This document shows, in pieces, positions 7,996-61,330 of a stretch of DNA of 64,000 nucleotides. The translations under genes were made by a program, and so were the position numbers. Within the stretch, counting starts at the first letter, position 1. Each line of letters starts with the position of its first letter. This DNA is from Gemmatimonadota bacterium (GTDB lineage Bacteria; Gemmatimonadota; Gemmatimonadetes; Gemmatimonadales; GWC2-71-9): NCBI GenBank assembly GCA_029863245.1, contig JAOTVV010000006.1, positions 35,362-99,361 of the forward strand, read 5' to 3'. The notes under the pieces were generated by a model, which worked only from the letters and a program-made list of their open reading frames with translations, was not told where the DNA came from and ran no database searches.

Positions 7996-9069
7996 TTAAC
8001 GCAGGTGGGCCCGCAGCCTGTCCTTGTCGGCGTCGTCGAGTGCGTCGACCATCGCGTGTCCAAAGTCGAGCATCGTCGCGTACCGGTTGTCGGGTTCGTT
8101 CTCGAGCGCGGTCATGAGCACGGCCTCGAGTGCGTTGGGAAAGCCCGACCGCACCGACCCGAGGGGAATCGGCTTCCCACGAAGGCGGGCAATCATCATC
8201 TCCTGCGGCGTGCGTCCCTGAAACGGTAGCTTGGTCGTGAACAGCTCGTAGGCCACGATCCCGAGCGCGTAGACATCGCTCCGCCGATCCAATGACTTGC
8301 CGCGGATCTGTTCGGGACTCATGAACTCCGGAGTCCCGAGAATGATGCCGGTGGCCGTCAGCTTGGCGACGCCTGGGCTCGCGCGCCGCTCCTTGGCCAG
8401 CCCGAAGTCCATCACGACTGCGATCTCGCCACCCGAAGCGTGGGGAACGAGCATGATGTTTTCGGGCTTCAGATCTCGATGGACGATGTTCAGATCGTGC
8501 GCATGGTGGAGACCAGCACAGCACTGTGCCAGGATTTTCACCCCCTCGGGCAGCGCCATGGCACCGATCTTCACCTCACGATCCGAGAGGAGCTCACCGC
8601 GGAGGTACGGCATCACCAGGTAGATGAGTCCGTCCTCAGTCTCGCCGAGTCGCAGGATCCTGCAGGCGTTGGGATGCTCGAGACGCATGGCGAGGCCGGC
8701 TTCGCGGCGCAGCCGTTCCACGGAGCTCTCATCCGTGCCGAGCTTCGGGCTGAGGATCTTGATGGCCACGGACTGGTCGGTGTTCAGATCGCGAGCCTCG
8801 TACACGAAGGCCATTCCACCTTCGCCGAGCATGCGGAGCACTTCGTAGCGCCGATCGAGCACTTCACCCTTGAGTGCGCCCGCTCGGCTGATGCTCGGAC
8901 CCTCTCGCGGTGTCATCACCTGCCGCACGAGGGTCCGCTGTTCGCCGGACGCGGTCGGGATCGGCTTGCCGCCCAACCCACCGACGTCTACGAGCGGACT
9001 CCCGTCCTTGGGGCAGAACCTGGCCTCCCCGGCGTAGACAGCCTTGCAGCGTGGACAACGTCGACTCAT
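7996..9069 (-). CDS. Hanks-type Ser/Thr protein kinase with N-terminal zinc ribbon
   Basis: N-terminus MSRRCPRCKAVYAGEARFCPKDG (CxxC...CP zinc ribbon). Kinase motifs are VAIKIL, HRDLKPENIM, DFGLA and GTPEFMSPEQ. No transmembrane or C-terminal sensor region is visible. Confidence 0.9.
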   Translation of the reverse strand: MSRRCPRCKAVYAGEARFCPKDGSPLVDVGGLGGKPIPTASGEQRTLVRQVMTPREGPSISRAGALKGEVLDRRYEVLRMLGEGGMAFVYEARDLNTDQSVAIKILSPKLGTDESSVERLRREAGLAMRLEHPNACRILRLGETEDGLIYLVMPYLRGELLSDREVKIGAMALPEGVKILAQCCAGLHHAHDLNIVHRDLKPENIMLVPHASGGEIAVVMDFGLAKERRASPGVAKLTATGIILGTPEFMSPEQIRGKSLDRRSDVYALGIVAYELFTTKLPFQGRTPQEMMIARLRGKPIPLGSVRSGFPNALEAVLMTALENEPDNRYATMLDFGHAMVDALDDADKDRLRAHLR

Positions 9070-10520
9070 GTGCGAACCAAGTTACGACCGGCACGCTTGG
9101 CGCGATACAGCGCGGCGTCCGCCCGATTGAGGGCGTTTTCCGGGCTGTCGATCTCTCCGGCCGGGATCGTGGTCACACCAATGGACGCGGTGATGGAGAG
9201 TCGAGTCCCGTCGGGGGAGAAGTCGTGTCGCTCGATCCGTTCCCGGAATCGCTCCGCGGAAGTGATCGCGCCCTCGAGCGGTGTTTCGGGGAGCAAGAGC
9301 ACGAACTCCTCGCCCCCGTAACGGGCCACCGTATCGACGCCGCGCACATGCGCCCGGAGCAGTTCGCCGACTTGTCGCAGGACTTCGTCGCCCACGAGGT
9401 GGCCACGCGCGTCATTGATCCGCTTGAAGAAATCCAGATCGACCATGACGATGCTCAAAGGCGAGCTGTAGCGACGCACGCGCTCGAGCTCGCGCTCGAG
9501 CACCTCCAGCAGGGCCCGCCGGTTGGCGCACCCGGTCAAGGAATCCGTCGTCGCGAGCCATTCATACCGCTCCTTGGCGGACTGGACGGTCTCGATTCGG
9601 TAGGCCTTCTCGATGACCCCGACGGCCGTGCGAATCACTCGCTCGGCGAACTCCATCACTTCTGGATCCAGCGGCGGCTCTTCCTGCAACGTCCGCAAGA
9701 AAAACACCCCCGTCTGAATGCCGTGCATCCCAAACGGCACGACGATCGCCGACCTCGTTCGGACAGCGACGCGTTGCCGCTCCCAATCCCCGCGCACCTC
9801 GGCAAACAGCGGATCCGTCCACACGTCTCGCACGAAGACCGCCTGGTCCTGCCCCAGGGCCTGTCGGATCTCCGGATACCCCGTCAGCTCGAGCTCCTTA
9901 TTGCGAATCGACGGGTCATCCGCCGCGACCACGATCCGCCCCCTCGACGCCCCTGGGGCGACGAGCACGATGGAGCACCGGGAGATTCTGAGGGCGTGTC
10001 TCACCCTTCGCGCCAGCACCACATAGATGTCCTCAGGCGCGAACGCCTCGGTCACCTCGTGGAGGATGTCGAGCATCTCGGCCCGAACCGAGGCCTCGAT
10101 GGCCGCGCGCTTGGCCTCTGCCCGTGCCTCCCGGAGCATACGGCTCGCACGGAGTTGCGCCTCCACCCGCGCTGCCAGCTCATCCGCGCGAAAGGGCTTG
10201 GGGATGAAATCCGCAGCCCCCAGGGAGAGCGATGTCACCGCCGCTTCCTCCGGGGACAAGACGGAGATCATCAGAACCGGCAGATCGCGCCAGCGCGCAT
10301 CCGCCTTGATCCGCTTCAGGAGCGCGATGCCATCCACCTGCGGCATCAGGATGTCGAGCAGCAGCAGATCCGGCGTCTCGCGTTCCAGGGCCTCCAGTGC
10401 TTCCTCACCGCTCTGAGCCGGAACGACCTCGTAGCCCTGCCGCTCGAGCGTCAGCGAAAGCGCCGTGAGCTGCGTGCGGTCGTCATCGACGACGAGGATC
10501 TTGGCGGGCTGTACGCTCAT
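9066..10520 (-). CDS. Response-regulator receiver - GAF - GGDEF diguanylate cyclase
   Basis: REC domain: KILVVDDDRTQL...LLLLDILMPQVDG. The central region is GAF-like. The active site is RYGGEEF, preceded by the I-site RGVD at the canonical RxxD-x5 spacing. The stop overlaps the kinase start (ATGA at 9066-9069). Confidence 0.9.
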   Translation of the reverse strand: MSVQPAKILVVDDDRTQLTALSLTLERQGYEVVPAQSGEEALEALERETPDLLLLDILMPQVDGIALLKRIKADARWRDLPVLMISVLSPEEAAVTSLSLGAADFIPKPFRADELAARVEAQLRASRMLREARAEAKRAAIEASVRAEMLDILHEVTEAFAPEDIYVVLARRVRHALRISRCSIVLVAPGASRGRIVVAADDPSIRNKELELTGYPEIRQALGQDQAVFVRDVWTDPLFAEVRGDWERQRVAVRTRSAIVVPFGMHGIQTGVFFLRTLQEEPPLDPEVMEFAERVIRTAVGVIEKAYRIETVQSAKERYEWLATTDSLTGCANRRALLEVLERELERVRRYSSPLSIVMVDLDFFKRINDARGHLVGDEVLRQVGELLRAHVRGVDTVARYGGEEFVLLLPETPLEGAITSAERFRERIERHDFSPDGTRLSITASIGVTTIPAGEIDSPENALNRADAALYRAKRAGRNLVRT

Positions 10521-10532
10521 GACGGCCGCATA

Positions 10533-11501
10533 TCAGCTGAGTCCTTGCAGCGAGTTCACCATAGCAAGATCTACGTTGCCCCCGCTGACCACCAGCACGG
10601 TAGGGCCGTGCGGGACCAAGGCGCCGGTTCGGAGCGCGGCCGTGGTCACAGCGCCCGAGGGCTCGGCCGTCACACCCACCTCGCGGTGGAGCCAGACCGT
10701 GGCCTCGGCAATCGCCTCCTCCGGGACCCGCACCGCGTCGACCACGTCCCGCACATGGGCAAACGTTAGCGTTCCGACGGCCAACGGGAGGAGGCCGTCG
10801 GCCATGCTGGCCGTGCGCTCCAGCCGCACCGGATGACCCGCCGCCAAGGCGGCGTGCAGGGCCGCGGCGCCTTCGGGTTCCACCCCGGTCACGCGGGCCT
10901 CGGGACGGATCGCTCGCAGCGCCGTGGTGATCCCGGCGATCAACCCCCCGCCACCCACCGGGACGGCAACGTGCGCGATCTCGGGAAGCTCCTCGGCGAT
11001 CTCCAATCCGGTGGTTCCCTGGCCCGCAATGATGGCCGGATGATCGTACGGCGGGATGATCGTGAGCCCCTCGGCTTCGGCCATCGCGAGTGCCTTTCGA
11101 TAGCGATCCTCTGAGGTGCGCCCCGCAAACACCACTTCCCCGTCCCATCGCTTCACGCCCTCGATCTTCGTTGCTGGAGCGGTCTCCGGCATGACGACGA
11201 CCGCGCGGGCTCCCACCCGTTGCGCTGCGAAGGCGACCGCCTGGCCGTGATTCCCGCTCGAGTACGTGATGACACCGCGGCGGCGGGACTCCGGATCCAA
11301 TTGCCGAACAAAGGTCCAGGCGCCGCGGAGCTTGAAGGCTCCGGTCGGCTGCTGGTTCTCGAGCTTCAGATAGACAGGAACGCCGGCGGCTTCACTCAGT
11401 TGCGGGACGTGCTGGAGGGGCGTCCGCGCGGCAACTCCCACGATGCCGCGCGCCGCCTCCCGTATATCGTCTACCGTTACCTGGGCTGGCGTGGTGCCCA
11501 C
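10533..11501 (-). CDS. PLP-dependent threonine/serine dehydratase (threonine ammonia-lyase family)
   Basis: Motifs LKLENQQPTGAFKLRGA (PLP lysine) and YSSGNHGQAVAFAA. The GTG start at 11501 directly abuts the gyrA stop (11502-11504). Confidence 0.85.
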   Translation of the reverse strand: MGTTPAQVTVDDIREAARGIVGVAARTPLQHVPQLSEAAGVPVYLKLENQQPTGAFKLRGAWTFVRQLDPESRRRGVITYSSGNHGQAVAFAAQRVGARAVVVMPETAPATKIEGVKRWDGEVVFAGRTSEDRYRKALAMAEAEGLTIIPPYDHPAIIAGQGTTGLEIAEELPEIAHVAVPVGGGGLIAGITTALRAIRPEARVTGVEPEGAAALHAALAAGHPVRLERTASMADGLLPLAVGTLTFAHVRDVVDAVRVPEEAIAEATVWLHREVGVTAEPSGAVTTAALRTGALVPHGPTVLVVSGGNVDLAMVNSLQGLS

Positions 11502-14018
11502 TCACACATCCATTTCCCGCTGGTCTTGCCCTTCGGCGACGACCTCCGGAGCGGTTTCGTCAGCATCCACCTCCCCCGCCTCCCCCTCGTCCGGCACCAC
11601 CCGGGCCACGTCGACCACGGCGTCACCAAGATCGAGGTTCATGACCTTGACCCCCTGCGTATTCCGCCCGATGACGCGGATCCCGCTGACCGGCAGCCTG
11701 ATGATGACTCCGTGTCGAGTGACCACCATCAATTCGTCGGCCGGGAGCACCTCCTTCAGTGCAACCACGGCGCCCGTCTTGTCGGTGCGCTTGAGCGTAA
11801 TGATGCCCTTCCCGCCCCGCCTTTGCACCCGGTAATCGGTGAGCTCCGACCGCTTCCCCAGCCCACGCTCGGACACCACCAACAGCGTGGCGTCGCGTCG
11901 CACGACCACCATTCCGATCACGCGATCGTCGCCGCTCAGCTGAATCCCCCGCACGCCCGACGTGGCACGCCCCAACGGGCGTGCGTCCTTCTCGCCGAAC
12001 CGAATGCTCATACCGTCTCGTGTGGCGAGCACCACGTCGTTGGATCCGTCCGTGGTTTGGACCTCGATCAACTCGTCGTCGTCATCGATGTTGATGGCGT
12101 TGATGCCATTCGCGCGCGGGTTTCCGTAGGCTGACAAGACGGTCTTTTTGATCATCCCCTTGCGGGTCGCGCACAGCAGGTACTGGTCGTCGGTGAACCC
12201 GCGCACGGAAACAAATGCCGTGATGCGCTCGTCCGGCGTGATCTGAATGAGATTGATGATGGGCTTGCCCCGGGCCGCCCGCCCGCTCTGCGGGATGTCG
12301 TACACCTTGAGCCAGTACAGCTGCCCATTGTGCGTGAAGAAGAGCACGTAGTCGTGGGTCGAAGCGACAAAGAGGTGCTCGACCCAATCGTCCTCTTTGG
12401 TCCCCATCCCGTTGAGGCCGCGCCCTCCGCGCCGCTGGCGACGGTAGGTGGACACCGGAATGCGCTTGATGTAGCCGGAATGGGAGATGGTGACCACCAT
12501 GTCCTCTTCGGCAATCAAGTCTTCGATGGAGAACTCGCCCTCGTCGGCCACGATCTCCGTACGCCGCGGATCGCCGAACTTGGTCACCACGTCGTCGAGT
12601 TCCTCCTTGAGGATCTCCATCCGCGTGGCTTTGGATCCGAGGATGGCCTTCAAATCCTTGATCAGCTTCTGGACGTCCTTCAGCTCCGCGTCCAGCTTGT
12701 CGATCTCGAGTGAGGTGAGCCGCGCGAGGCGCATATTGAGAATCGCCTCACTCTGCTTTTCTGACAGTTCGAACCGCTCCCGCAATGCTGCGTCGGCTGC
12801 CGGGACGTCCTCGGCCTTCCGAATGATCTGTACGACTTCGTCGATGTTGTCGACGGCGATCTTGAGACCCTCGAGGATGTGCTCCCGACTCTGGGCCTCG
12901 AGCAGGTCGTGCTCGGCGCGTCGCGTGATCACCTCGTGGCGATGATCCACGAAGTGCCCCAACATCTCCTTCAGGTTCATCACCTTCGGCTGACCGTCCA
13001 CGAGCGCGAGCATGATGGCGCCGAACGTGGTCTGCATCTGCGTGTGCTTGTACAGGAGATTCAGCACGACCGTAGGATTGACGTCGCGCTTCAGCACCAC
13101 CACGACCCGCATGCCGTCACGATCGGACTCGTCCCGCAGGTCAGCAATGTCCGTGATCTTCTTCTGTCGAACGAGGCCCGCGATCTGCTCGACCAACCGG
13201 GACTTGTTCACCATGAAGGGGATCTCGGTCACGACGATCTGCGACTTCCCGGTGGACTCCTTCTCCTCAACCCGGGCACGGGCGCGCATGACGATTCGCC
13301 CGCGACCGGTGTCGTAGCAGTCCTTGATCCCCTCTCGGCCATAGATGAACCCGCCGGTCGGGAAATCGGGACCGCGGATGTGTTTACGCAGATCTCCGAT
13401 CGTGCACTCGGCATTGTCGATCAGATGCTTGATGGCTCCGACCACTTCGCCGAGGTTGTGCGGCGGAACGTTGGTCGCCATCCCGACGGCGATGCCCGAC
13501 GACCCGTTGACCAAGAGGTTGGGGAGCCGGGACGGGAGCACCGTGGGTTCCCGCAACCGGTCGTCGAAGTTCGGCGCGAACGACACCGTGCTCTTGTCGA
13601 TGTCTTCCAGCATCGCGACCGCGCGGGCCGTGAGGCGCGCTTCGGTGTAGCGGTACGCCGCGGCACTGTCGCCGTCGACCGAGCCGAAGTTCCCCTGCCC
13701 ATCGATCAGCGGATAGCGGAGCGAGAAGCCCTGCACCATGCGGACGAGCGCGTCGTATACCGCTGTGTCGCCATGCGGATGGTACTTGCCGAGCACGTCA
13801 CCCACGACCGTTGCGCTCTTCTTGAACGGACGGTTCGGCGCGAGGCCCAGCTCGTGCATGGCGTAGAGGATGCGCCGATGTACCGGCTTCAGTCCGTCGC
13901 GTACGTCGGGTAGCGCACGTTGGACGATGACGCTCATCGAATAGTCGATGAACGATTCCCGCATCTCGTCTTCGATGAGCCGCGGGAGAATGCGCTCGCG
14001 CTGGTTTGGTGCGGTCAT
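11502..14018 (-). CDS. gyrA: DNA gyrase subunit A
   Basis: Motifs [45 protein letters not shown] and the active-site tyrosine region [10 protein letters not shown]. Beta-pinwheel C-terminal domain and acidic tail. I prefer ATG 14018 ([10 protein letters not shown]...) over the track TTG at 14078, based on alignment length to E. coli GyrA. Confidence 0.95.
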
Positions 14019-14366
14019 TGGCGTGTCGGTTTGGCGACGAAAAATGGGGCCACGGGGACCCCAACGGAGGTCTGACAATAATAGTCGGTCACGGGGCCGA
14101 AATCAATGGTCAATCACACATCTAAATCAATGTACCGCAACCAATTACGCCAAACGACGCCAATGTCCTTTCGGGGGGGCCGAACACGGCGGTTTCGCGC
14201 CACCGTCGATCCCCTGCGAAGCCTTCACCTCCAGGTCCCCAGACGACGTGATCAACGTCGTGCAACCATTCGGTCGACGGCAGCATCTAATGTGGCAGAG
14301 GACATCGAATTGCAGCGGGTCCCGACCGTGATGACGCGGTCGACGATGCATGGGTCAGGAGTGAGC

Positions 14367-22243: not shown

Positions 22244-23131
22244 ATGACGACCGAGATCCGCACGGCGATTGAACGGACCACCGCGTTCTTCGAGGGACGG
22301 CACACCCGCCCGGCTGTCGTTGCCCGTCGCTGTGTTGGCCATCCCCGCCCCGAAGACGCCGAGCTCACCGAACATCTCGTTCGGGCTATCCGCCGCAAGA
22401 CCCGCATCGATGGGAGCGTTCACGGCTCCCTGATGGACACTGCCTGGGCTGCCTGGGAACTGCTGGAGCTCGGGTGCCAGGCCGATCACGCGGCAGTCAT
22501 CCGGACCGCCGGCTTCATCCTCCAAACCGAAGATCGGGACGGGCACTTTGGCGAGGGATGCGTCGACGAGCGGCATGTGCGGCACCGGTGCCGGCATTTC
22601 CTGAGCGGGTTCTTCTCCCCCGGATCGTGGGATCACCCGACTGCGCCGCTCGAGTTTCCCTCTGGCCTTAGGATCGATGATGAACAGGGCGCCAGGTTCG
22701 CCGTCAGCTGTTACGTCTTACGGAGCGTCCTCCGCGCCGGCGCAGATCGGCGCAGCGCCGTGCGGCGTCACGTCGACTCGCTCCTCTCGCTCTCCGCGCT
22801 CTGGGACGAAGACGGCGGCTGGGCTCCGGACCTCGTCATGGGTGCGCTGGGAGCGCTGGCCTACGCTTCGATCGACTATCGATCGAAGGTCGTCGGCCTC
22901 GGGCGGCGGATCCTGGATCGGCAGCAGAACGACGGCTCGTGGACCAACACGCACGCGTTCCACGCCTTGGAGATGTTCCTGGGCCTGACGGGACCGGAGG
23001 TGGTGGTGGCGGCCCGCCGCGCGGCGCCGGCCCTCATCGGGCGACAGACTCCCGAGGGGGCCTTCGATCCGACCGGCAACGAAGAGCCGGCGCTGATCGC
23101 CCTGCGTGTGCTTCTCCTCGCCGAGAGATAG
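22244..23131 (+). CDS. Hypothetical protein with prenyltransferase/terpene-cyclase-like alpha/alpha-toroid repeats
   Basis: Repeated segments of the type DGSVHGSLMDTAWAAWELLELG, DRDGHFGEG, QQNDGSWTNTHAFHALEMFL and QTPEGAFDP resemble prenyltransferase/squalene-oxidase repeats. Family assignment is from memory. Confidence 0.5.
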   Translation: MTTEIRTAIERTTAFFEGRHTRPAVVARRCVGHPRPEDAELTEHLVRAIRRKTRIDGSVHGSLMDTAWAAWELLELGCQADHAAVIRTAGFILQTEDRDGHFGEGCVDERHVRHRCRHFLSGFFSPGSWDHPTAPLEFPSGLRIDDEQGARFAVSCYVLRSVLRAGADRRSAVRRHVDSLLSLSALWDEDGGWAPDLVMGALGALAYASIDYRSKVVGLGRRILDRQQNDGSWTNTHAFHALEMFLGLTGPEVVVAARRAAPALIGRQTPEGAFDPTGNEEPALIALRVLLLAER

Positions 23132-23272
23132 GCCCTCGGCGGCGGACTCCGAACCCGCCTGCCGACCTGCTACCTTTCATCCTCGAATCACCACCGGGCA
23201 TGACCGTCGGGTTGACGGGTACCGATGGGCCCGTTCAGCGAATCACCCTTCATGGAAGGGCATGAGACATCG

Positions 23273-24358
23273 ATGGCCGACGCTCCGCGGGACCAGCGGC
23301 CGAGCATTCGACTGACGACACTGTCACACGGCGCAGGCTGAGCCTGCAAGCTCGGCTCCGCTGAGCTGGCGCAGGTCCTGCGCCACCTCCCCGCGGTCGA
23401 CGATCCGCGGGCGCTCGTGACAGCCCTGACACGCGACGATGCCGCGGTGTATCGCATATCCGACACCCGCGCCATCGTGGCGACGGTGGATTTCTTCACG
23501 CCGATCGTCGACGATCCGTACACGTTCGGGGCGATCGCGGCAACCAACGCGCTGAGCGATTTGTACGCGATGGGAGCGACGCCGCTCTTTGCGCTCAACA
23601 TCGTTGCGTGGCCTCGCGACCCTGAGGTGCTGGAACTGGTGGCCGACACCGTGCGCGGTGCCGTCGACAAGGCGCGCGAGGCAGGGATGTTCGTGCTTGG
23701 CGGCCACTCCATCGAGGACCCGGAGCCGAAGTTCGGCATGGTCGCCGTGGGGGAAGCGCACCCCGACCACCTGCTCACCAACGCAGGTGCGCAGCCCAAT
23801 GACTATCTGGTCCTCACCAAACCCCTGGGGACGGGCGTGCTCGCCACGGCACTGAAGCGCGGCACGATCACCGAAGGCGACATGACCAGGGCCATCACGG
23901 CCATGACCACCCTCAACGCAGGAGCCCTGGCGGCGGTGCGATCGGTGGGAAGCGCCGTGCACGCCGTGACGGACGTGACCGGATTCGGACTCGTGGGTCA
24001 CGCCTATAACCTGGTGGCGGCAAGCGGCGTCGGCGCCCGGCTGTTCGCCGATCGGGTGCCGGTTTTCCCCCAAGTCCCCGAGATGATTCGTACCGACGCG
24101 GTGCCGGGCGGTACTGTCCGCAATGCTGACGCGGCGAAGGCCTGGACGACATGGTCGTCGGACGTCGACCCGGTGGTCCGGACGATCCTCTGCGATGCCC
24201 AGACCTCGGGCGGACTCCTCATCGCCGTGGCCTCGGACGCCGTCGATGCCCTGGTGCAGGCCCTCAAACGGGAGAGGACCCCCTCGGCTGCCGTTGTCGG
24301 ACACGTCGTGGACCGCGGCAGCGGCACACCTATGGAGGTCGTACGGGATGGTACGTAA
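23273..24358 (+). CDS. selD: Selenide, water dikinase (selenophosphate synthetase) with in-frame UGA selenocysteine
   Basis: The track shows only 23417-24358. Reading the same frame upstream from ATG 23273 gives MADAPRDQRPSIRLTTLSHGAG-UGA-ACKLGSAELAQVL...TRDDAAVYRISD...VDFFTPIVDDPYTFGAIAATNALSDLYAMG. This is colinear with E. coli SelD (IRLTQYSHGAGCGCKISP...TRDDAAVY...[30 protein letters not shown]). The UGA at 23339-23341 sits at the Cys17 position. Confidence 0.9.
23339..23384 (+). other. UGA-Sec codon plus candidate bacterial SECIS hairpin(s)
   Basis: UGA at 23339-23341. Hairpin A is CCTGCAAGCTC/GAGCT-GGC-GCAGG (23343-23376). Alternative hairpin B is GGCGCAG-GTC-CTGCGCC (23368-23384). The apex of hairpin B, GCAGGUCCUGC, resembles the E. 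coli fdhF SECIS apex GCAGGUCUGC. Confidence 0.65.
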
Positions 24359-24956
24359 GCACAGAGACTTCGTGGCAGTTCACGCTGACGAGAGCTGCCT
24401 CGGCAACGGACGGGACGGCGCCAACCCCGGAGGGGCGGGCTCGCTGATCGAGGTCGGGACACGCGATGGTGTGGTCCGCCGTGATGTCCAGATCTCCTCG
24501 CCCGATACCACCAACAACCGCATGGCGCTCGCCGGAGGCGTCGCGACATTTGCCCTGCTGTCTCGTAAGGGAAACCGATTCCGCGTGCTCTACGTCTCTG
24601 ATTCGGAATACCTGGTCAAAGGGATGGCCGAGTGGGTGCCGGCCTGGATCGCCAATGGCTGGCGTCGCAAGGGCGGAAAGATCGAGAACCTCGAGCTGTG
24701 GCAGAGGCTCGTCCAGGCCGTCGCAGGACACGAGGTGACGTGGCACTGGGTGCGGGGCCACGCCGGGCACGTCAAGAACGAGTACGCGAACGATCTGGCG
24801 ATGTGGGCCGCCCAACAACAAACCCATTCCGCGGGCGCGGTTCCCTCCCGGTTCGAGGAATGGCTCGCCGACCATCAGGCCCGAGGGCATTTCGACGGCT
24901 ACGAGGCCGATGCAGACTTCGCCGAGCTCCAGACACGGGCGGCGGCGGCCACATGA
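24348..24956 (+). CDS. rnhA: Ribonuclease HI with a C-terminal extension
   Basis: Track ORF 24123-24956. ATG 24348 (MVRKHRDFVAVHADESCLGNG) overlaps the selD end by 11 nt. RNase H motifs are TNNRMALAG, YVSDSEYLVKGM and WHWVRGHAGHVKNEYANDLA. Confidence 0.85.
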   Translation: MVRKHRDFVAVHADESCLGNGRDGANPGGAGSLIEVGTRDGVVRRDVQISSPDTTNNRMALAGGVATFALLSRKGNRFRVLYVSDSEYLVKGMAEWVPAWIANGWRRKGGKIENLELWQRLVQAVAGHEVTWHWVRGHAGHVKNEYANDLAMWAAQQQTHSAGAVPSRFEEWLADHQARGHFDGYEADADFAELQTRAAAAT

Positions 24957-34127: not shown

Positions 34128-35210
34128 ATGCGCATCGCACTCGCGTTCAACCAACGTCCGGAAGACGTCGTCGCCGATCACGGCGGCGACCGCCGGACCA
34201 CCTTCGAACCGCTCACCGACGAGTACGTCGAGTGGGATGACGCCGAGACGATCGCGGCGGTGCGCGACGCTCTCCAGGTCTTCGGGGACGTCGTGCCCCT
34301 CGAGGCCGTGGGCGACTTCCCGTGCAAACTCCGCGACGCCCGGGTGGACTTCGTCTTCAACATGGCTGAGGGCCACAGTGGTCCGAACCGGGAGGCACAT
34401 GTCCCGGCGATGGCCGAGTTCTTCGGCATTCCCTATCTGGGGAGTGATCCGCTCACGCTCGCGATCGCGCTCCACAAGATCCGGGCAAAGGAGGTCTTTC
34501 GGCAGCGCGGGGTGCCGACGCCGCCGTTCACCTGGATCGATTCCGAGGCTGATCTGTCGGTGCTGCGGAACGGGCATCCCTACCCGGCGTTCCTCAAGCC
34601 GGCCTGGGAGGGCTCCTCTAAAGGAATAGCGGAGGCCAACTACGCACGGACCCCGGCGGAGGCGGTCGAGCGCGCGCGGCATCTGCTGGAGGCCTATCGC
34701 CAGCCCGTTCTCGTGGAAGCGTTCCTCCCAGGTGAGGAGTTCACCGTCGCCGTCATGGGGAACGGGCTCGACGCGCGGGCACTGCCGCTCATCCGCTACC
34801 GGTTCGACGGCCTGCCGCCCGGCGCACTCCCCATTATGGGCTACGAGGCCAAGTGGAAGTGGGACGTGCCCGACACGCCGCTCGAGGTGCTCGAATGCCC
34901 CGCGGCGGTCGATGAGGAAGCCGCCGAGGCGGTGCGTCACACCGCCCTCGCCGCCTACCACGCCCTGGGCTGCCGCGACTGGGCTCGCGTCGATGTCCGA
35001 CTGGATGCCAGCGGTGCTCCACACGTCCTCGAGGTCAATCCCCTGCCCGGCATCATCCCCGACCCGGCAGCGAACAGCTGCTTCCCGCGCGCGGCGTGGA
35101 CGGCCGGGATGACCTACGACGACCTGATCCAGTCGGCCGTGCGGATCGCCTGGCGGCGGGTCACCGGTGGGGAACTCGCATCAGAACCCGTTTCAGGAGT
35201 CACGCACTGA
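34128..35210 (+). CDS. ATP-grasp ligase, D-alanine--D-alanine ligase-like (paralogue 1)
   Basis: Motifs MRIALAFNQ...VDFVFNMAEG...AEFFGIPYLGSDPLTLAIALHKIRAKEVFRQRGVPTPPF...FLKPAWEGSSKGI...EEFTVAVMGN...WARVDVRLDASGAPHVLEVNPLPG. This is the Ddl-type ATP-grasp layout. Confidence 0.8.
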   Translation: MRIALAFNQRPEDVVADHGGDRRTTFEPLTDEYVEWDDAETIAAVRDALQVFGDVVPLEAVGDFPCKLRDARVDFVFNMAEGHSGPNREAHVPAMAEFFGIPYLGSDPLTLAIALHKIRAKEVFRQRGVPTPPFTWIDSEADLSVLRNGHPYPAFLKPAWEGSSKGIAEANYARTPAEAVERARHLLEAYRQPVLVEAFLPGEEFTVAVMGNGLDARALPLIRYRFDGLPPGALPIMGYEAKWKWDVPDTPLEVLECPAAVDEEAAEAVRHTALAAYHALGCRDWARVDVRLDASGAPHVLEVNPLPGIIPDPAANSCFPRAAWTAGMTYDDLIQSAVRIAWRRVTGGELASEPVSGVTH

Positions 35211-36217
35211 ACATCGCGGCGATCTACGACGGCGGCGCAGAGAGCTGGAGTCCGGAGGACATCCGGGCCGTGCTCGCATCCGTCGCCACCGTGAGCCGCG
35301 TGCTAGAGACGGCGGGTCACGAGGTGACGCGCGTCTCCGTGCAGCCCGACCTCGCGTGGTTCGGCTCCGTGCGGGAGGCCGACCTGGTATTCAACCTGTG
35401 CGAGGGGGTCGGAGGCGTCAGTCGCCTGGAGGTCAACGTCGCCTCGATGATGGAACTGGCGGGGATTCCCTTCACCGGATGCTCGGCCTGGACGATGGCA
35501 GTGTGTCACCGCAAGCCGCTCCTCAACGCGTTCCTGGCGTCGCGGGGAGTGCCGGTTCCGCGCTGGCACGTCCCGGAAGGGGCGGCGGCCGTGCCCGACG
35601 ACTTCCCGCTCCCGGCGATCGTGAAGCCGGCCGCCGAAGACGCGAGCATCGGGATCGAGCAGGGATCGGTGGTCACCAGCCCCTCCGCCCTCCGCGATCG
35701 GGTGGCGCTGGTGCGGGAGCGGCATGGGACGGCCATCGTGCAGCAGTACATCGCCGGCCGGGAGCTGGCGGTGGGCTTCGTCGGTGACGGCATCCTCCCA
35801 CTGTCGGAAATCGACTTCACCCACCTGCCGGCCGGCGCTTGGCCGATCGTCTCGTTCGCCGCGAAGTGGCTCGAGGCGAGCCCGGAGTTCGCCGGGACCC
35901 AGCCGGTCTGTCCTGCGGACGTCGACGCCGACCTGGCCAACCGTATCGTGCAGATGGCGGCCTTGGCATGGCAGGCCGTCGAAGGTCGGGGATACGGGCG
36001 AGTCGATCTTCGGGTGGATGCGGATGGGAATCCCTGGGTCCTGGAGGTCAACCCCAATCCAGACCTCTCGGCCGACGCGGGGTTGGCGAACATGGCCCGA
36101 GCGCGTGGCTGGAGTTACGACCGGCTGGTGCTCCAGATCGTCGAGGCGGCTCGCAGTGGGCGGAGACAAAGCCCGGCCGTGCCGATCACTTCGACGCGTG
36201 AGGTCTCGCTCGCATGA
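35207..36217 (+). CDS. ATP-grasp ligase, D-alanine--D-alanine ligase-like (paralogue 2); start codon unresolved (CTG?)
   Basis: Track ORF 35096-36217. Homology to paralogue 1 begins at LNIAAIYDG (compare MRIALAFNQ). Between 35096 and that point there is no ATG, GTG or TTG in frame. CTG 35207 lies 7 nt after AGGAG and overlaps the upstream stop (CTGA). Motifs: ADLVFNLCEG, MELAGIPFTGCS, IVKPAAEDASIGI, GRVDLRVDADGNPWVLEVNPNPD. Confidence 0.75.
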   Translation: MNIAAIYDGGAESWSPEDIRAVLASVATVSRVLETAGHEVTRVSVQPDLAWFGSVREADLVFNLCEGVGGVSRLEVNVASMMELAGIPFTGCSAWTMAVCHRKPLLNAFLASRGVPVPRWHVPEGAAAVPDDFPLPAIVKPAAEDASIGIEQGSVVTSPSALRDRVALVRERHGTAIVQQYIAGRELAVGFVGDGILPLSEIDFTHLPAGAWPIVSFAAKWLEASPEFAGTQPVCPADVDADLANRIVQMAALAWQAVEGRGYGRVDLRVDADGNPWVLEVNPNPDLSADAGLANMARARGWSYDRLVLQIVEAARSGRRQSPAVPITSTREVSLA

Positions 36218-36735
36218 GCACCGCCGAGACGACCGTGACGATCGGCCCACTGCGGGCTGAAGACCGGGAGCGCGTCCGCGCGATGGTCGAGGCCACGCGT
36301 GTCTTCCGCTCCGACGAGATCACCGTGGCCCTCGAAGTGTTCGACGACCACATCACCCGTCCCGGCACCGACTACCACGCGATCGGCGCCTTCGACGATG
36401 ACGGACTGGTGGGCTTCACCCTATACGGTCCGACCCCTTGCACCAGCGCCACGTGGGATCTCTACTGGATCGTCGTCGATCCGGCGGCGCACCGACACGG
36501 GGTCGGTCGCAAGCTCATGGATCACACCGAACGGAACATCCGGATGCGGAAGGGGCAGCTGATCGTGGTTGAGACGTCGTCCCGCGACGACTATGGGCCG
36601 ACCCGGGGGTTCTACGATTCGATCGGGTACACCCGTGCTGCGCACATCGCGCAGTACTACGGTCCTCAGGACGATCTGATCGTCTACACCAAGCATCTCG
36701 CTCCTCCCGCAAAAGAGATGGCACACCATGGCTGA
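36214..36735 (+). CDS. GNAT-family N-acetyltransferase
   Basis: ATG 36214 overlaps the upstream stop (ATGA). The acetyl-CoA binding motif A is WIVVDPAAHRHGVGRKLMDH. Length is 173 aa. Confidence 0.85.
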   Translation: MSTAETTVTIGPLRAEDRERVRAMVEATRVFRSDEITVALEVFDDHITRPGTDYHAIGAFDDDGLVGFTLYGPTPCTSATWDLYWIVVDPAAHRHGVGRKLMDHTERNIRMRKGQLIVVETSSRDDYGPTRGFYDSIGYTRAAHIAQYYGPQDDLIVYTKHLAPPAKEMAHHG

Positions 36736-37921
36736 ATGGCAGAAGCTCCTCCACGAGCGCGGTGTCCGCACGCTCCAGCAGCTCGTCGAACGGTTCGGGC
36801 CGGAGCACTTCCCAGACCTCGAGCGCCTTCAGCAGGCGGTGGACAACTTCGAGTTCCGGATCTCCCCCGCCATGGTGGACCTGATCCAGAAGCCCAATGA
36901 TCCGATCTGGCGGCAGTACGTCCCCGACCTGCAGGAACTCGAAGTCGTGGATGGCGTACTGGACAGCCTCAACGAGGAAGGCGACAGCCCGGTGCCCAAC
37001 ATCACGCACCGGTATCCGGATCGGGCGTTGTTCCTCGTGAGCCCGGTGTGCGCGTCGTACTGCCGGTTCTGCACCCGACGCCGCAAGGTGGGGGATCCCG
37101 AAAAGATCTCCATGGCCCAGCTCGAATCGAGCTTCCGGTACCTTCAGGAGCATGAAGAGATCCGCGACGTGATCCTCTCGGGTGGGGATCCTCTGCTTTT
37201 GTCGGATCGGCGACTCGATGCGATCCTCGGCCGGCTGCGCAAGATCCAGCACATCGAGGTCATCCGGATCGGTAGCCGCATCCCGTGCCATCTCCCGGAG
37301 CGGATCACCCCGGAGCTCTGCGCAGTGCTGAAGAAGCACCACCCGTTGTACATCAACACCCACTTCAACCACCCGGCCGAGTTGACGCCCGCTGCGGTCA
37401 AGGGACTGGGCATGCTGGCGGACGCCGGAATTCCGCTAGGGTGCCAGACGGTACTCCTCAGCGGCGTGAACGACGATGTCGACGTCATGAAGGAGCTCAT
37501 GCAGAGGCTCCTCGTCGCGCGCGTGCGCCCGTACTACATCTTCATGTGCGATAACGTGGCCGGCGTGGAGCACTTCAAGGCCACGGTCGAAAAGGGCCTC
37601 CAGATAGTGAAGGGCCTCCGTGGCTGGACGAGCGGGCTCGCCGTTCCCCACTTCGTGATCGATGCCCCGGGTGGTGGCGGCAAGATTCCCCTGCTCCCGG
37701 AGTACGTCGAGTCGATCACGGACGACGAGATCGTGCTCAAGAACTATCGCGGCCAGCGCTACGTGTACCCGCAGGCCCGGTCGGAGGTGTTGGTCGCGGC
37801 CGGCGCAGCCGAGCCGGAGTACGAGCTGATGTCGCTGTTTGGCGACGAGCCATCGCCGGGATCCCCGCGGCCGCGTTCCCGCAACGGCACCCGCAAGGGG
37901 GCAAAGAAGAAACGCACCTAG
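36728..37921 (+). CDS. KamA-family radical-SAM / PLP amino acid 2,3-aminomutase (lysine 2,3-aminomutase-like)
   Basis: Overlaps the GNAT gene by 8 nt. Motif NITHRYPDRALFLVSPVCASYCRFCTRRRK carries the CxxxCxxC cluster. FVIDAPGGGGKIPL carries the PLP-lysine motif. The C-terminal tail is basic: SRNGTRKGAKKKRT. Confidence 0.9.
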   Translation: MAEWQKLLHERGVRTLQQLVERFGPEHFPDLERLQQAVDNFEFRISPAMVDLIQKPNDPIWRQYVPDLQELEVVDGVLDSLNEEGDSPVPNITHRYPDRALFLVSPVCASYCRFCTRRRKVGDPEKISMAQLESSFRYLQEHEEIRDVILSGGDPLLLSDRRLDAILGRLRKIQHIEVIRIGSRIPCHLPERITPELCAVLKKHHPLYINTHFNHPAELTPAAVKGLGMLADAGIPLGCQTVLLSGVNDDVDVMKELMQRLLVARVRPYYIFMCDNVAGVEHFKATVEKGLQIVKGLRGWTSGLAVPHFVIDAPGGGGKIPLLPEYVESITDDEIVLKNYRGQRYVYPQARSEVLVAAGAAEPEYELMSLFGDEPSPGSPRPRSRNGTRKGAKKKRT

Positions 37922-47819: not shown

Positions 47820-50800
47820 TCAGGCTCGACCTTCCGCACTCCCGAGCGGCTGGTCAATCGCCTCACGGACCTTGCCCAACAACTCCGCCACCGTCCACGG
47901 TTTCCGAAGAAACGGCACGTCTCGACCTTCCGGTCGCGCCTTGGAAACGTCTACTTCGGAGTACCCGCTCGTAAAGAGGAACTTCACGGCGTAGCCCCGC
48001 GTTTGGGCAGCTTCGAACAGCTGCATGCCACTGAGCTTGGGCATGACGAGGTCGGTGATGACGAGGTCGAGACTCGGCCCGTGATCGCGCAGGAACTCCA
48101 TCGCCTGTTGGCCGTTTTCCGCCGTGAGCACCCGGTATCCCTGCCGTTCCAGGATTCGCTGCACCGACCGCCGGATGGCCGCCTCATCCTCCACCACCAG
48201 GATGGTCTCTGTGCCGGTGGGCATGTCCTCGGACACCGCGGGCTCCGGGAGCACCTGCTCTTCGGTCGATGTCGGCACGTAGATCCTGAAGGTCGTGCCG
48301 AGCGCGGGCTCGCTGTACACGTTGATGTAGCCGGCGTGCTGCTTCACTAGTCCATAGACCATGGCGAGGCCAAGGCCCGTCCCTTGCCCCTGGGGTTTCG
48401 TCGTGAAGAACGGCTCGAAGATCCGCTCACGCGTGCGGGCATCCATCCCGGTCCCCGTGTCGCTCACCGACAGGCATTCGTACTCGCCTGGGACCCCCCA
48501 CCCGTGCGTCGTCCGATACTGCTCGTCGAGGGCGGCGTGGCGCGTCTCGATCCGGAGCACGCCACCTGCCGGCATCGCATCGCGCGCATTCGTCGCGAGA
48601 TTGAGCAGGATCTGCTCCATCGCACTGGGATTGGCATGGGCGAATCCGGCGTTCCCGGTCTCCAAGCGAATCTCGATGTTCTCGGGAAGCAGGCGACGGA
48701 GCATGGTCGACACCTGCCGGACGAATTGGCTCAGGTCCAGCGGTGACCGGTCGAGCTGTTCGCGACGGCCGAACGTCATGAGTTGCTTGATCATGTCGGT
48801 GGCGCGTCGCGCGGCCTTGCCGATCTCGTCGACGTCCTGGAGCACCTCGGTCTGCTCCGGCGGCAACGATTCCTGCAGCAGCTCCGTATTGGCCAGAATG
48901 GCAGTGAGGATGTTGTTAAAGTCGTGTGCGATACCGGCAGTGAGCTGGCCAACGGCCTCCATTTTTTGCGCGTGCCGCAGTTGGCTCTCCAGAGCCCGAC
49001 GCTCGGTGATGTCCTCGGCCACCATCTCGAAGTACTGCGCCCGACCGTTCGTGTCGTGGACCGGCCGGCCGCTGAGCCGCACCGCGAACAGGCTCCCGTC
49101 CTTGCGCCGCCACGTCGCCTCCACGCCGTCGATGCGATCGGCACCCGAGAACTCCTTGACGAGCCTGGCGCGCTCGGCTGCCCGGGCATAGACCTCTTTG
49201 GCCAAGTCGAGCTTCAGGACCTCTGCCTCGTCGTCGTAGCCGAGCATCTCCACCAGCGCTGGATTGGCCGCGAGGAACCTCCCTTCGGGACTCGAGCGAT
49301 AGATGCCGTAGAGCGCATGATCGATCAGGGCTCGCAGGCTCGACGCCGACTGCTTGAGCGCGGCCTCCGCCTTCTTGCGCTCGGTGATGTCACGAATGAC
49401 CCAACTGAAGAACTGCTGTCCCTGCACCTCCCACGATCCTACCGATATCTCCACGGGGAGCGTCGACCCGTCGCGTCGCCGTCCCACCGCCTCGATGATG
49501 CTCCCCGAGAGATCCATCGGCGCCACAGGTTGCTCGGGGGCCTCGGGGTCGCTCTCGGTCGGCTTACTAGATGGATCCGGGATGAGCTTCGCGATCGGCA
49601 GCAGGTGCATCTCGGCGCGGGAGTAGCCAAAGACCTGCTCCGCCGCATGGTTGCAGAACACGATGCGTCCCTGCGCGTCCGCGACGAGGATGGAATCGAC
49701 GGCCGATTCCGCCACGGCCCGGAACCGGTCCTCCCGCTCCCGCAGTGCTTCCTCCGCCGCCTTCCGCTCGGTCACATCGTGTGCCACCCTGATGAGGAGA
49801 TTGTACGGACCTTGGCTGTCGGTCCATTCCAGGCGCCGTTGCTGCCCTCGAACATCCACCACGACCCGCTCGTACGGACGGTCTCCGAGTGGCTCGCGGC
49901 CCGCAGCCTTCGACGCCACGAGGGTTTGCTCCCGCTCTCGTTCTTGTGGGTCGCTCACTGTCAGACGCCACCACCCATCTTCCAAGCACTCGTGTGGATC
50001 CAGGCCGAGAATCCGTCGCACCGACGGACTGACGTACCGAATCTCCCCGGTATCGTCAGCCACCACCACGAGATTTCCTACCGACTGCAAGATGCTGTCG
50101 GAGAGGCGCATCTTTGCTTCTGACTGTCGCCGTCTGGTGATGTCCTCCACCATGGCCACGACGAATTGCAGATTACCCTGCTCGTCGAGCAAGAGGGAAA
50201 GGGTCAGTCGCCCCCAGACCAGTGACCCGTCCTTGCGTAGGTACCGATTCTCGAGCACACCCACGGGCTGTCCTGTCTCGATCATCCGTCGCTTGAGCTC
50301 GAGCACTTCGGCGTAGTCCTTGGGATGACTGACGTCGGCGAGGGTCATCGCGAAGAGTTCATCCCGCGAATATCCGAGAAACCGTTCGATCGCCTCGTTG
50401 CAGCTCACGAACATGTTCTCGGGATCGACGATGGTCACGCCGATCCCAGCTCCCTCGAATACGGCTCGAAATCGATCCTGACTCTCTTTGAGCGCCTGCT
50501 CAGCCCCTCGGCGCTCGGTGATGTCTTCGCCGGACGAGAGCGTCCCCATCGGGACCCCATTGCTGTGCCGCAGGACGACGTTATGCCACGCGATGAGGCG
50601 GCGGGCGCCGCTGCGGGTCAGGATCGCGTTCTCGTAGTACTCCGGCAGGCCACCATCTCCCGACATCGCCGCCTCGAACACCGACCGAACGGTTTCCACT
50701 TCGTCCTGCGGCAGACAGGTCTCGAACCAGGGTTTCCCCACGATGGCCGACTCGCGCTCGTAGCCGAGAAGCCCGAGGCCTTTGCGGTTGACCAGTGCCA

Positions 50801-51359
50801 CCTTCCCCTGACGGTCTAGTCCTACGAAGATGACTTCGGCGAGGTCGAGATACTGCTGCGTTTGGCTCCACACCCTGCGCAGCTCTTCGGCCGACCGCGG
50901 GCGCTCGGTGATATCCCGGACGGCGAGCATGATGCAACCGAACGCGGGGTCGGCGAGCCGGTTGTTGCCGAGCACCTCGACCTCTCGCCAGGAGCCGTCG
51001 GCGTGCCGCACGCGGAGTTCGCGCGGCGGAGCCGAGCCCGTCTGTTCGAGCCCCTCCGCAAACGCCTGCTTGGCTCGAGGAAGATCGGTCGGATGCACCA
51101 GATCGAAGACGCTCTGGCCGACAACTGCGCTCTGTGGGTAACCCAACACCGCCGTGATCGCCGGGCTGACGTACGTGACGCAGCCAGCCTCGTCGAGCAT
51201 CACGACGATATCTCGGTCGAGCGCGAGTTCGACGACGGCCTGCCAGTCTAGCTGTCGATCCGGCCGGTCAGGTACCGTCTTGTGGGTTGGCCTGCGTCGC
51301 CACCACGCCAGCATCGGCACCGCTGCGGCTAGCACCGCTCCCAGATCGGCCGCGCTCAC
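47820..51359 (-). CDS. Hybrid sensor histidine kinase: 1 TM, about 6 PAS domains, HisKA, HATPase_c, REC
   Basis: By eye there are six PAS cores, for example [77 protein letters not shown] and [16 protein letters not shown]-box [14 protein letters not shown]-box [23 protein letters not shown]...LVITDLVMP. Confidence 0.9.
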
Positions 51360-51952: not shown

Positions 51953-52585
51953 TCAGGCCGTCAGTCCCTGCTCGATGGCATAGCGAATCAGTTCCGCGGT
52001 GGTCTTCAACCCGAGCTTGTTCAGGACCCGTGCCCGGTACGTGCTCACCGTCTTCGGACTCAAGGACATCTCGGCCGCGATTTCCTTGAGGCTCGTACCG
52101 GCGCCGAGACTCACGAGAACCTGATACTCCCGCTCCGATAGCCGATCGTGCAGGGGCCGATCGTACTCCGGATCGAGCTCGAAGGCCAAGGCTTCAGCCA
52201 GCGTCGAGGTCACGTACCGTGCACCCTGGTGGACACGCCGAATGGCTTCCGCCAACTCGCCGGGCGTGTGGTTCTTCGTCAGATAGCCGGCGGCTCCGGC
52301 CCGAAACGATCGCAGCGCGTACTGGTCTTCGGGGTGCGCGCTCACGACAAGCACTCGCAAGCGCGGATACGTCGAGCGCAGACGCTGCATCATCTCGAGA
52401 AACGGCAGGCCGGGCATGGAGATGTCCAGCAAAAGGACGTCTGCTGTCACGTCCTGCAGGAGTTCCTGAAGGCGATCGCCGTCAGCCGCTTCGCCCACGA
52501 CGGTCATGTCGGGATGCTCCGCGACGATGCGATGCAATCCCTCGCGAACGATCGGATGATCGTCGGCAATCACCAGACGAATCAC
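51953..52585 (-). CDS. NarL/FixJ (LuxR-type HTH) response regulator
   Basis: Track ORF 51953-52975. GTG 52585 overlaps the upstream kinase stop (GTGA). REC motifs are IRLVIADDHPIVREGL and VLLLDISMPG. The LuxR HTH is LSEREYQVLVSLGAGTSLKEIAAEMSLSPKTVSTYRARVLNKLG. Confidence 0.9.
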   Translation of the reverse strand: MIRLVIADDHPIVREGLHRIVAEHPDMTVVGEAADGDRLQELLQDVTADVLLLDISMPGLPFLEMMQRLRSTYPRLRVLVVSAHPEDQYALRSFRAGAAGYLTKNHTPGELAEAIRRVHQGARYVTSTLAEALAFELDPEYDRPLHDRLSEREYQVLVSLGAGTSLKEIAAEMSLSPKTVSTYRARVLNKLGLKTTAELIRYAIEQGLTA

Positions 52586-60800: not shown

Positions 60801-61330
60801 GCGCCTGCCACGAACCCGGCAAACACCACCATGAGAAGGGCGAGATACTCGAACGGCAGGTCGACGACGACAACGGCAGGTCCGACGGCCCAGGCCAGAC
60901 CGGTGACTACGATGATGGCCCGGAGCATCCGGATGGCATAGGAGTACTCCGCCTGTGTCGCTGCCAGTCGGTGCCGAATGAAGAGCCTAGTGGCCGTCGC
61001 CGCCACGATGGCCACGAGCCACAGAAGGAGCGCAACGCGCGCGACATGGGGCCAGAAGAGCACCCCCATGAGCGCCGCGAATACCACGTGCATCACCTCG
61101 GCGGTGGGGCTCTCGGCCAGGAGGCGCGCCAGCAGGGCGTCGTGTACCTCCTTCGATGAGCGCTCCTGCTCGCGGCGGCTCTCAACGGCCACATCAGCCG
61201 CCTGCAGAAACGTCGCCCCTCCGGAACCCGGCCCGTCGAGCCTCGTCATCGCTTTGGATGCCTCAGTCGATCCCACATCGGTGTCCCCGGTGTGATGCCG
61301 GCCCCAGCCCGGCAGTGGCCAACCCACCAC
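57839..61330 (-). CDS. Hybrid sensor histidine kinase: multi-TM N-terminus, 2 PAS, HisKA, HATPase_c, 2 REC, HPt
   Basis: H-box LANMSHEIRTPMNGV, G-box GGTGLGLAIS. REC1 is VLVVDDNATNRR...VIDAYMP and REC2 is ILLAEDNPVNQE...VLMDLQMPELDG. C-terminal HPt motif AHAYKSAAGTIRA. The true start may be internal (for example ATG 61249). Confidence 0.85.
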   Translation of the reverse strand: MVGWPLPGWGRHHTGDTDVGSTEASKAMTRLDGPGSGGATFLQAADVAVESRREQERSSKEVHDALLARLLAESPTAEVMHVVFAALMGVLFWPHVARVALLLWLVAIVAATATRLFIRHRLAATQAEYSYAIRMLRAIIVVTGLAWAVGPAVVVVDLPFEYLALLMVVFAGFVAGATNTLVADARSFYGLTAALMGPLALSILAAGNMRLQVIAFLLVVLFGGTMTTMFHRAHRQLVAYLQAAAELASSEAAARQERSFLEALLASAPTAFVAMASDGTVLGTNPAFERLFGYPPEDAVGGQLNDLLVPAGDLQVARALENRVAAGETVIAEVQRRRKDGSLVWVRVAAAPVREAVGRGTWFVLYDDISAMKRAEAGMREAEQQYRELVESASDLVWQVDGQGKWTFLNTASERVYGREPVSMVGRPFAEVVDPDYLDQDLAAFGTVLRGEELRDYETIHRHADGSVRHLSYAARPVRDASGAVIGARGMARDVTDRAATRTALEEAREMAENAAAAKAAFLANMSHEIRTPMNGVMGMTDLLLDTELTPEQRQSAELIRTSAESLLHVIDEILDFSKIEAGHVTLEEISLDLHALLDSVVRLLAMRAFEKGVELILDLSPAVPRTVCSDPSRIRQVLTNLIGNAIKFTSQGEIVVTVSAAPASDGEREIRFSVRDSGIGIPQDKLEAIFEEFTQADVSTTRRYGGTGLGLAISRRLVHFMGGELMARSDDSRGSEFWFTLSLPQVPDQETPTVHRDRAVIRGARVLVVDDNATNRRILRRMLEAAEAVVHEEELADDALAALRQATRQETPYALAVIDAYMPVRDGFQLAELIREDAALGDTRLMMLTSAGRRGDAERCRERGIRGYITKPVSGSDLIEAAAVVLSGKGTIDEGAQLVTRYTIEEARRRLRILLAEDNPVNQEVAARMLRRRGHDVDVVENGRQAVDAVGREEYDVVLMDLQMPELDGLSAAREIRALPTGGAVPIIALSAHALEEEQGRARAAGMTDYLVKPFKPHDLFALVEGWEQTAEGESEVLPADSTRPAVDLAAFQDTMREAGAADAVDEMLELFLADAPQRMATLERAAAMDDVEGVTQAAHAYKSAAGTIRATLLHELLGALEKESREENAGRVADLLIRVREEHASVMLYLLSALGETAGSA

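Follow-up and report, generated by a model that had tools for sequence, protein, structure and literature searches.

In the genome of an uncultured Gemmatimonadota bacterium (assembly GCA_029863245.1), a stretch of 64,000 nucleotides of contig JAOTVV010000006.1 (positions 35,362 to 99,361; hereafter the window) carries a selD gene that is interrupted near its 5′ end by an in-frame TGA. We conclude, with a probability of roughly 0.88, that positions 23273-24358 of the window encode a full-length selenophosphate synthetase, SelD, in which selenocysteine (Sec) is the catalytic residue of the N-terminal loop. An earlier reading of the letters without database searches (the sequence-only reading) had noted that the list of open reading frames (ORFs) starts selD at GTG 23417 while the same frame is open back to ATG 23273 save for one TGA. 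Translation confirmed this, the TGA at 23339-23341 being the sole internal stop between ATG 23273-23275 and TAA 24356-24358. The features of the gene are listed below.

23273-24358, plus strand: full-length selD coding sequence, 361 codons including the predicted Sec at codon 23, from translation, family profiles and the match to Escherichia coli SelD
23254-23260, plus strand: Shine-Dalgarno-like GGAAGGG, 12 nt 5′ of the ATG, read from the sequence, with a presumed function in initiation
23273-23275, plus strand: start codon ATG, 22 codons before the Sec codon, conserved in the clade
23339-23341, plus strand: in-frame TGA, predicted Sec codon for residue 23, at the place of Cys17 in E. coli SelD
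23349-23367, plus strand: hairpin 1, AGCUCGGC-UCC-GCUGAGCU, 8 bp, loop UCC, −11.0 kcal/mol, from folding
23368-23384, plus strand: hairpin 2, predicted apical stem-loop of the selenocysteine insertion sequence (SECIS), GGCGCAG-GUC-CUGCGCC, 7 bp, loop at 23375-23377, from folding and covariation
23417-23419, plus strand: GTG start of the ORF list and of the public annotation, yielding a 313-aa truncated product

To assign the product, we scored the 361-aa sequence with Cys put in for the in-frame stop. It matched TIGR00476 (selD) at 372.5 bits (cut-off 125), with profile positions 1-310 on residues 13-323, and NF002098 at 353.5 bits (cut-off 299); AIRS (PF00586) and AIRS_C (PF02769) were both above gathering. 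The predicted function is ATP-dependent synthesis of selenophosphate from selenide. Position 1 of the TIGR00476 profile falls at residue 13, that is, upstream of the TGA. The best match among solved structures was E. coli SelD (PDB 3U0O; E = 2.7e-73, residues 10-354). Query residues 10-26, PSIRLTTLSHGAG[U]ACK, lie on residues 4-20 of the 3U0O chain, NSIRLTQYSHGAGCGCK, so that U23 corresponds to Cys17 and K26 to Lys20. The UGA thus occupies the catalytic Cys/Sec position and is followed by the conserved Lys, as had been proposed, and the full-length product contains the glycine-rich N-terminal loop with the equivalents of both residues. Public collections list the 313-aa product as 'selenide,water dikinase'; the record P0001 begins MTALTRDD.

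The segment upstream of the TGA behaves as coding sequence. The aligned ATG is kept throughout the clade, in-frame stops occur just 5′ of it in L004, L098, L100 and L009, and the DNA 5′ of the ATG is unalignable among relatives. Of the differences within the 22 codons that precede the TGA, more are synonymous than non-synonymous in five of the six comparisons made (7 vs 3 for L087 and 10 vs 6 for L088; L081, with three differing codons, shows 1 vs 2). The GGAAGGG is retained in the close relatives L081, L083 and L086, the remaining upstream region being divergent. Judged by codon conservation and by the profile match from residue 13, this segment is translated as SelD sequence and the N-terminus is real. 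The alternative that the gene truly starts at GTG 23417 was not upheld by the orthologues, in which the N-terminal loop is kept in frame and full-length Cys forms exist.

The TGA itself is reproducible and conserved. The 147 nt from ATG to GTG, TGA included, are identical in two ENA metagenome assemblies (ERZ27296337 and ERZ27296478), and a contig of Logan SRR7133492 that starts at the TGA shows no difference in the 81 nt that run from there to the GTG. Our comparison set comprised 169 SelD loci, drawn from collections of genomes and metagenomes. Alignment of Sec- and Cys-containing orthologues, proposed as a check in the sequence-only reading, placed the two residues in the same column: in gapless register, this codon is TGA in 95 distinct SelD sequences and TGC or TGT in 59. 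The nearest relatives, at 83-94% protein identity, all have TGA (GCA_039591075.1, GCA_039588955.1, GCA_041602035.1 and GCA_964348385.1), and all four are called as truncated proteins of 313-329 aa; the close relatives L081-L083, L086 and L087 likewise have TGA at the Sec codon. Across the Gemmatimonadota-type clade (51-94% identity) there are about 33 TGA forms vs five TGC forms (L005, L006, L008, L106 and L109). Because the Sec and Cys forms of this clade share the neighbourhood selD-rnhA-cytidine deaminase-zinc ribbon-isopropylmalate dehydrogenase, they are orthologues that differ by Sec/Cys replacement.

Since single-sequence folding is uninformative at 65.6% GC, the case for a SECIS rests on comparison. 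The sequence-only reading had described two alternative SECIS-like hairpins directly downstream of the UGA. Both hairpins are present, with 8 and 7 bp, respectively; they stand back to back in tandem, however, and are not mutually exclusive, and the SECIS-like character holds for the second, which is specific to Sec forms, but not for the first, which also follows Cys codons. The published bSECIS model specifies a loop of 3-9 nt, an upper stem of 4-16 bp, G in the first two loop positions, a UGA-loop spacing of 16-37 nt and a minimum free energy of at most −7.5 kcal/mol (PMC13188914). We applied these criteria (Fig. 2 legend of PMC13188914) by hand. Hairpin 2 falls within every limit, with 7-8 bp, a spacing of 33 nt and an energy of −11.3 kcal/mol (7 bp) or −12.9 kcal/mol; an eighth pair, U23367-A23385, is possible. 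The loop can be read as GUC or as G-GUC-C, the latter fitting N1-G-[G|U]-N-N2, and the hairpin overlies the codons for (L)AQVLR(H).

Of the cells of hairpin 2, 82.1% are paired in the set of 95 Sec sequences, against 46.5% in that of 59 Cys sequences. Orthologues with the same peptide and synteny, in which Sec vs Cys is the only difference, provide a natural control that points to the second hairpin as the SECIS. With the peptide fixed at xQVLR, at least 6 of 7 pairs form in 55/56 Sec vs 1/8 Cys sequences (Fisher 1e-7), and all seven form in 48 of the 56 Sec-type homologues. Given LAQVLRH and the codon usage of the window, the probability of 7/7 pairs is 0.028, with a mode of 4-5 pairs, and the Cys forms show just these 4-5 pairs. 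The Cys form L005, for instance, shares the peptide AELAQVLRHLP with the window but has CUC CGG for CUG CGC, which breaks the stem. Both-sided (compensatory) changes were found at six of the seven pairs, and the covariation is seen across phyla. Changes at the third position of the Ala codon are matched at the first position of the codon five further on, as in GCG/CGC (Arg), GCC/GGU (Gly) and GCU/AGC (Ser), and further compensatory pairs are ACG/CGU, UCG/CGA and CAA/UUG. The loop is a Val codon, GUN, without exception. When RNAalifold was run on 33 clade sequences, it returned exactly hairpin 1 plus hairpin 2 as the consensus; run on the 95 Sec sequences together it returned none, because two SECIS classes are mixed in that set. 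On the strength of the Sec/Cys contrast, we therefore assign the SECIS to the second hairpin, an assignment that remains a prediction from comparative sequence. According to the sequence-only reading, the gene shows that the organism decodes UGA as Sec. "Shows" is too strong a word, but decoding of UGA as Sec by this organism is a strong inference because purifying selection acts on the UGA, on the upstream codons and on the SECIS.

The Cys orthologues with the same synteny (L005:10034-10099, L106:7180-7245, L006, L008 and L109) keep hairpin 1 and have lost part of hairpin 2, with between two and six of its seven pairs left (five in L005, six in L008, two in L109). Their hairpins look like SECIS remnants after Sec-to-Cys conversion, such as have been described for SelD (PMC1794560).

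We propose the following mechanism. Translation would begin at ATG 23273. With UGA 23339-23341 in the A site, the hairpin at 23368-23384, a G-C-rich 7-bp stem with the apex AG-GUC-CU, like the GGUC loop of E. coli fdhF, would recruit SelB carrying Sec-tRNA(Sec). SelB would then insert Sec, and no termination would take place. During decoding the ribosome would have melted hairpin 1, which lies between the UGA and the predicted SECIS, at least in part. We infer that SelB binds, that Sec is really inserted and that selA, selB and selC lie elsewhere in the genome. Since the selenium donor for Sec-tRNA(Sec) is itself the product of SelD, synthesis of the enzyme would depend on that product; positive feedback of this kind is known for Sec-type SelD.

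Several results weigh against a Sec-encoding selD. ARAGORN found no tRNA at all, and hence no tRNA-Sec, in the window, and no tRNA in 33 of 34 related loci, tRNA-SeC being present only in L076 (Peptostreptococcaceae). A tblastn search with the SelA and SelB of L076 gave no match in the window or in Gemmatimonadota-type loci, and selA, selB and tRNA-Sec were absent around selD in about 40 such loci, over up to 21 kb, none of them lying closer to selD than 10 kb in any locus of this type. Rfam returned no match at gathering over the whole window and, for 23300-23440 with E up to 10, only chance-level matches to unrelated families; its SECIS families were included and none came near the gathering score, and this null does not count against a bacterial SECIS. 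The single-sequence fold did not differ significantly from shuffles (z = −1.65, GC 65.6%). The 33 nt between the UGA and the loop of hairpin 2 come close to the upper limit of the published range, and the loop G-U lies at +37/+38 from the U of the UGA vs +23/+24 in fdhF, 14 nt further away. Finally, selenium incorporation at UGA 23339-23341 is itself a prediction.

Across L001-L166, all matches to the tblastn queries were in loci of the Firmicutes, Verrucomicrobia, Chloroflexi and Actinobacteria type. In other phyla (L076 and others), ARAGORN and tblastn did recover selA-selB-tRNA-Sec next to selD, indicating that the search methods work. Pfam and NCBIfam scans of about 50 window ORFs contained none of SelA, SelB, SelU/YbbB and YqeB/C, and no literature specific to Gemmatimonadota and Sec was found, including in the supplements of PMC5029168. 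When the TGAs of the window were passed through a loose filter (open frame of 20 codons on each side and, 16-37 nt downstream, a hairpin of at least 7 bp with G in the loop), 33 remained, and all but that of selD lie inside known genes or at gene boundaries; a SECIS-like structure by itself has almost no specificity at 65.6% GC. A coding-potential scan of the TGA junctions of the window returned nothing but antisense artefacts and genes adjoining in the same frame (gyrA / PALP / GGDEF), and no candidate selenoprotein gene besides selD came to light in the 64 kb.

Because selD is unlinked to selenium genes and no other candidate was seen in the 64 kb, it is possible that the Sec apparatus serves SelD mainly. 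We considered whether the SelD SECIS of this clade is a distinct two-hairpin, long-spacing variant, the Sec apparatus being kept mainly or only for SelD in a self-sustaining loop. In such a variant, a proximal, coding-constrained helix may be melted by the ribosome while a distal SelB-binding hairpin stands at 33 nt. We regard this elaboration as unlikely.

Slightly less likely still is that hairpin 1 is the functional SECIS, or that the two hairpins act as a single composite element whose effective distance is set by hairpin 1. Of the two, hairpin 1 stands closer to the UGA, which recalls E. coli fdhF; RNAalifold predicts it in the clade, and Sec-SelD of the GPGDL type has its sole hairpin at this nearer position. 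Its cells are also somewhat enriched for pairing in Sec forms, although the gap is modest (69.9% vs 58.3%; Mann-Whitney p = 0.001). By contrast with hairpin 2, however, hairpin 1 fails the bSECIS model on two counts, having a UCC loop without G and a spacing of 15 nt, short by 1 nt. All eight pairs are expected in 10% of random codon choices for KLGSAEL (P = 0.10, mode 6-7 pairs), and the hairpin is still there after the Cys codons of L005 and L106. Moreover, its 5′ arm begins 8 nt after the UGA, a position that falls within the ribosomal mRNA channel during decoding. Hairpin 1 is thus probably, to judge from its codons, largely a by-product of the palindromic L-G...E-L codons and not a SelB-binding element; it may have a minor role as a spacer or lower helix.

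It is improbable that the UGA is a true stop, with selD being either a decaying pseudogene or an N-truncated gene read from GTG 23417, and the Sec machinery lost or never present. In its favor are the lack of selA, selB and selC in the window and near selD in related loci, the 313-aa product in public gene calls and the precedent of 'orphan' selD genes, which are known (PMC5029168). The truncated product would, however, be without the Gly-rich loop that bears the catalytic Cys/Sec17 and Lys20. In addition, the start, the 22 upstream codons and the UGA are conserved in a clade that has diverged to about 52% identity, mostly by synonymous change, and the predicted SECIS hairpin is upheld against the expectation from codon usage. 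The lineages that have really given up Sec at this position (L005, L006, L008, L106 and L109) have switched to TGC and their hairpin has decayed.

Readthrough without SelB, whether by a reassigned code (UGA = Trp or Gly) or by near-cognate suppression inserting Trp or Cys, is very improbable. Nothing specific speaks for it, and it arises only from the Sec machinery not having been located. TGA is the stop codon of 26 of 40 window genes, which rules against a genome-wide reassignment. The site is that of the catalytic Cys/Sec, where Trp or Gly would inactivate the enzyme, as is established SelD biochemistry, and the downstream hairpin, of a putative SelB-binding type, is lost where the codon is Cys. 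Hardly credible at all is a sequencing or assembly error in an ordinary Cys-type SelD: TGA is one base from TGC and TGT, and Cys-type orthologues occur in the same phylum, but the codon is identical in the three independent assemblies, is shared by every close relative and some 30 further clade members, and is accompanied by a Sec-specific hairpin that is intact, unlike in the Cys forms.

With Sec as the favored reading, the correct annotation would be a 361-aa selenoprotein (transl_except Sec at 23339-23341), not a 313-aa fragment without the catalytic loop. The public records of relatives, P0001-P0004 and many more with calls of 310-330 aa, are due the same correction. The finding marks this lineage of Gemmatimonadota as probably using Sec, and other UGA-interrupted genes there therefore merit a selenoprotein check. 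A modest bonus of the data is the clean Sec/Cys natural control among orthologues.

The gene immediately downstream is listed here because it sets the 3′ context of selD; it is outside the selenoprotein feature.

24348-24956, plus strand: rnhA (RNase HI), from PF00075 and NF001236 matches, with an ATG that lies inside the end of selD, giving an overlap of 11 nt

The same 11-nt overlap is present in the gene calls of L081 and L083, and throughout the phylum the genes keep the order selD-rnhA-cytidine deaminase-double zinc ribbon-isopropylmalate dehydrogenase. This conserved order suggests that selD is co-transcribed with housekeeping rather than selenium genes. Directly 5′ of selD, 22244-23131 (plus strand) encodes a protein of 295 aa that is conserved and belongs to no Pfam or NCBIfam family; it occupies the same position in many Gemmatimonadota loci, beside Sec and Cys forms alike.

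Elsewhere in the window, 34128-37921 (plus strand) holds a pair of neighbouring D-Ala-D-Ala-ligase-like ATP-grasp genes; next come a GNAT acetyltransferase and a lysine-2,3-aminomutase-like radical SAM gene, and the group may be a cluster of the beta-lysine / N-acetyl-beta-lysine type. Three PAS-rich sensor histidine kinases of 1163-1315 aa stand in a row at 47820-51359, 52582-56529 and 57839-61330 (all minus strand); two of the three have receiver domains and so are hybrid kinases, and a LuxR-type response regulator lies at 51953-52975. At 9066-14078 (minus strand), gyrA, a gene for a pyridoxal phosphate-dependent enzyme and a GGDEF response regulator gene share one frame, with the TGA stops 11502-11504 and 10533-10535 between them. 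These genes came up in the scan for in-frame TGAs but appear to be ordinary ones packed closely together, each of which has a start codon of its own.

Sec-containing SelD occurs in Haemophilus influenzae, Aquifex aeolicus, many Deltaproteobacteria and Clostridia, and as SPS2 in archaea and eukaryotes. Like these proteins, the window SelD belongs to the TIGR00476 family and has the N-terminal loop G-x-G-U-x-C-K, with the UGA at the catalytic position and the predicted SECIS in the coding region just downstream, and annotation fails on it in the same way. The pattern of Sec-to-Cys replacement with remnant hairpins is also shared (PMC1794560). As had been pointed out in the sequence-only reading, Sec-containing SelD is an already known class (PMC1794560, PMC13188914); together with one other, SelD is the most widespread of bacterial selenoproteins, and mis-annotation of it is frequent (PMC1794560, PMC13188914, PMC13326102). 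The present gene differs in coming from an uncultured Gemmatimonadota lineage for which public records hold the truncated protein only, and in being unlinked to selA, selB and selC; it sits instead in a cluster of housekeeping genes (rnhA and the genes for cytidine deaminase and isopropylmalate dehydrogenase). Sec-type SelD, second in frequency among bacterial selenoproteins, and its annotation failure both being well known, the finding is nothing new in kind; its value is practical and lies in annotation.

Compared with E. coli SelD (Cys17, PDB 3U0O), the window protein is collinear over residues 10-354 and has SIRLT..SHGAG-C/U-xCK in identical register; E. coli selD has a Cys codon (TGC) and no SECIS, whereas the window gene has TGA, predicted to encode Sec, and a predicted SECIS. 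The SECIS of E. coli fdhF is, like hairpin 2, a G-C-rich hairpin inside the ORF downstream of the UGA. The close resemblance of the apex GCAGGUCCUGC to the fdhF apex GCAGGUCUGC, noted from the sequence, held when the fdhF sequence was verified in 5,419 E. coli genomes; the window apex is one base longer, with the G-U dinucleotide exposed in the loop. The upper stem of the window lacks the bulged U of fdhF, and a separate 8-bp hairpin lies between its UGA and the predicted SECIS, where fdhF has one long 40-nt stem. The narrow fdhF-type arrangement, with loop G23/U24 about 20 nt from the UGA and a bulged U, is thus not that of hairpin 2, which, as far as the sequence goes, resembles fdhF in the presumed SelB-contacting apex and not in geometry.

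A second comparison is provided by the SelD proteins that we call class B (peptide GPGDL..KAL), GPGDL-type proteins found in Chloroflexi, Deltaproteobacteria and Clostridia; the SelD example in BSepDB, from Acetomicrobium mobile, is of this class (PMC13326102). Over the first 66 nt after the Sec codon of the class B loci (L049, L052, L061, L063, L072, L078, L142, L146, L147, L150, L154, L155, L157, L162, L165 and L166), the sole hairpin is GGUCC-R-GG-N-GACC at +16 to +28, and there is none at +30 to +46. Class B and the window thus share the gene family, the position of the UGA and a hairpin in the first 15 codons after it, but class B has the near hairpin (+16 to +28) only, whereas the window has the reverse emphasis. 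One protein family therefore appears to have two SECIS placements.

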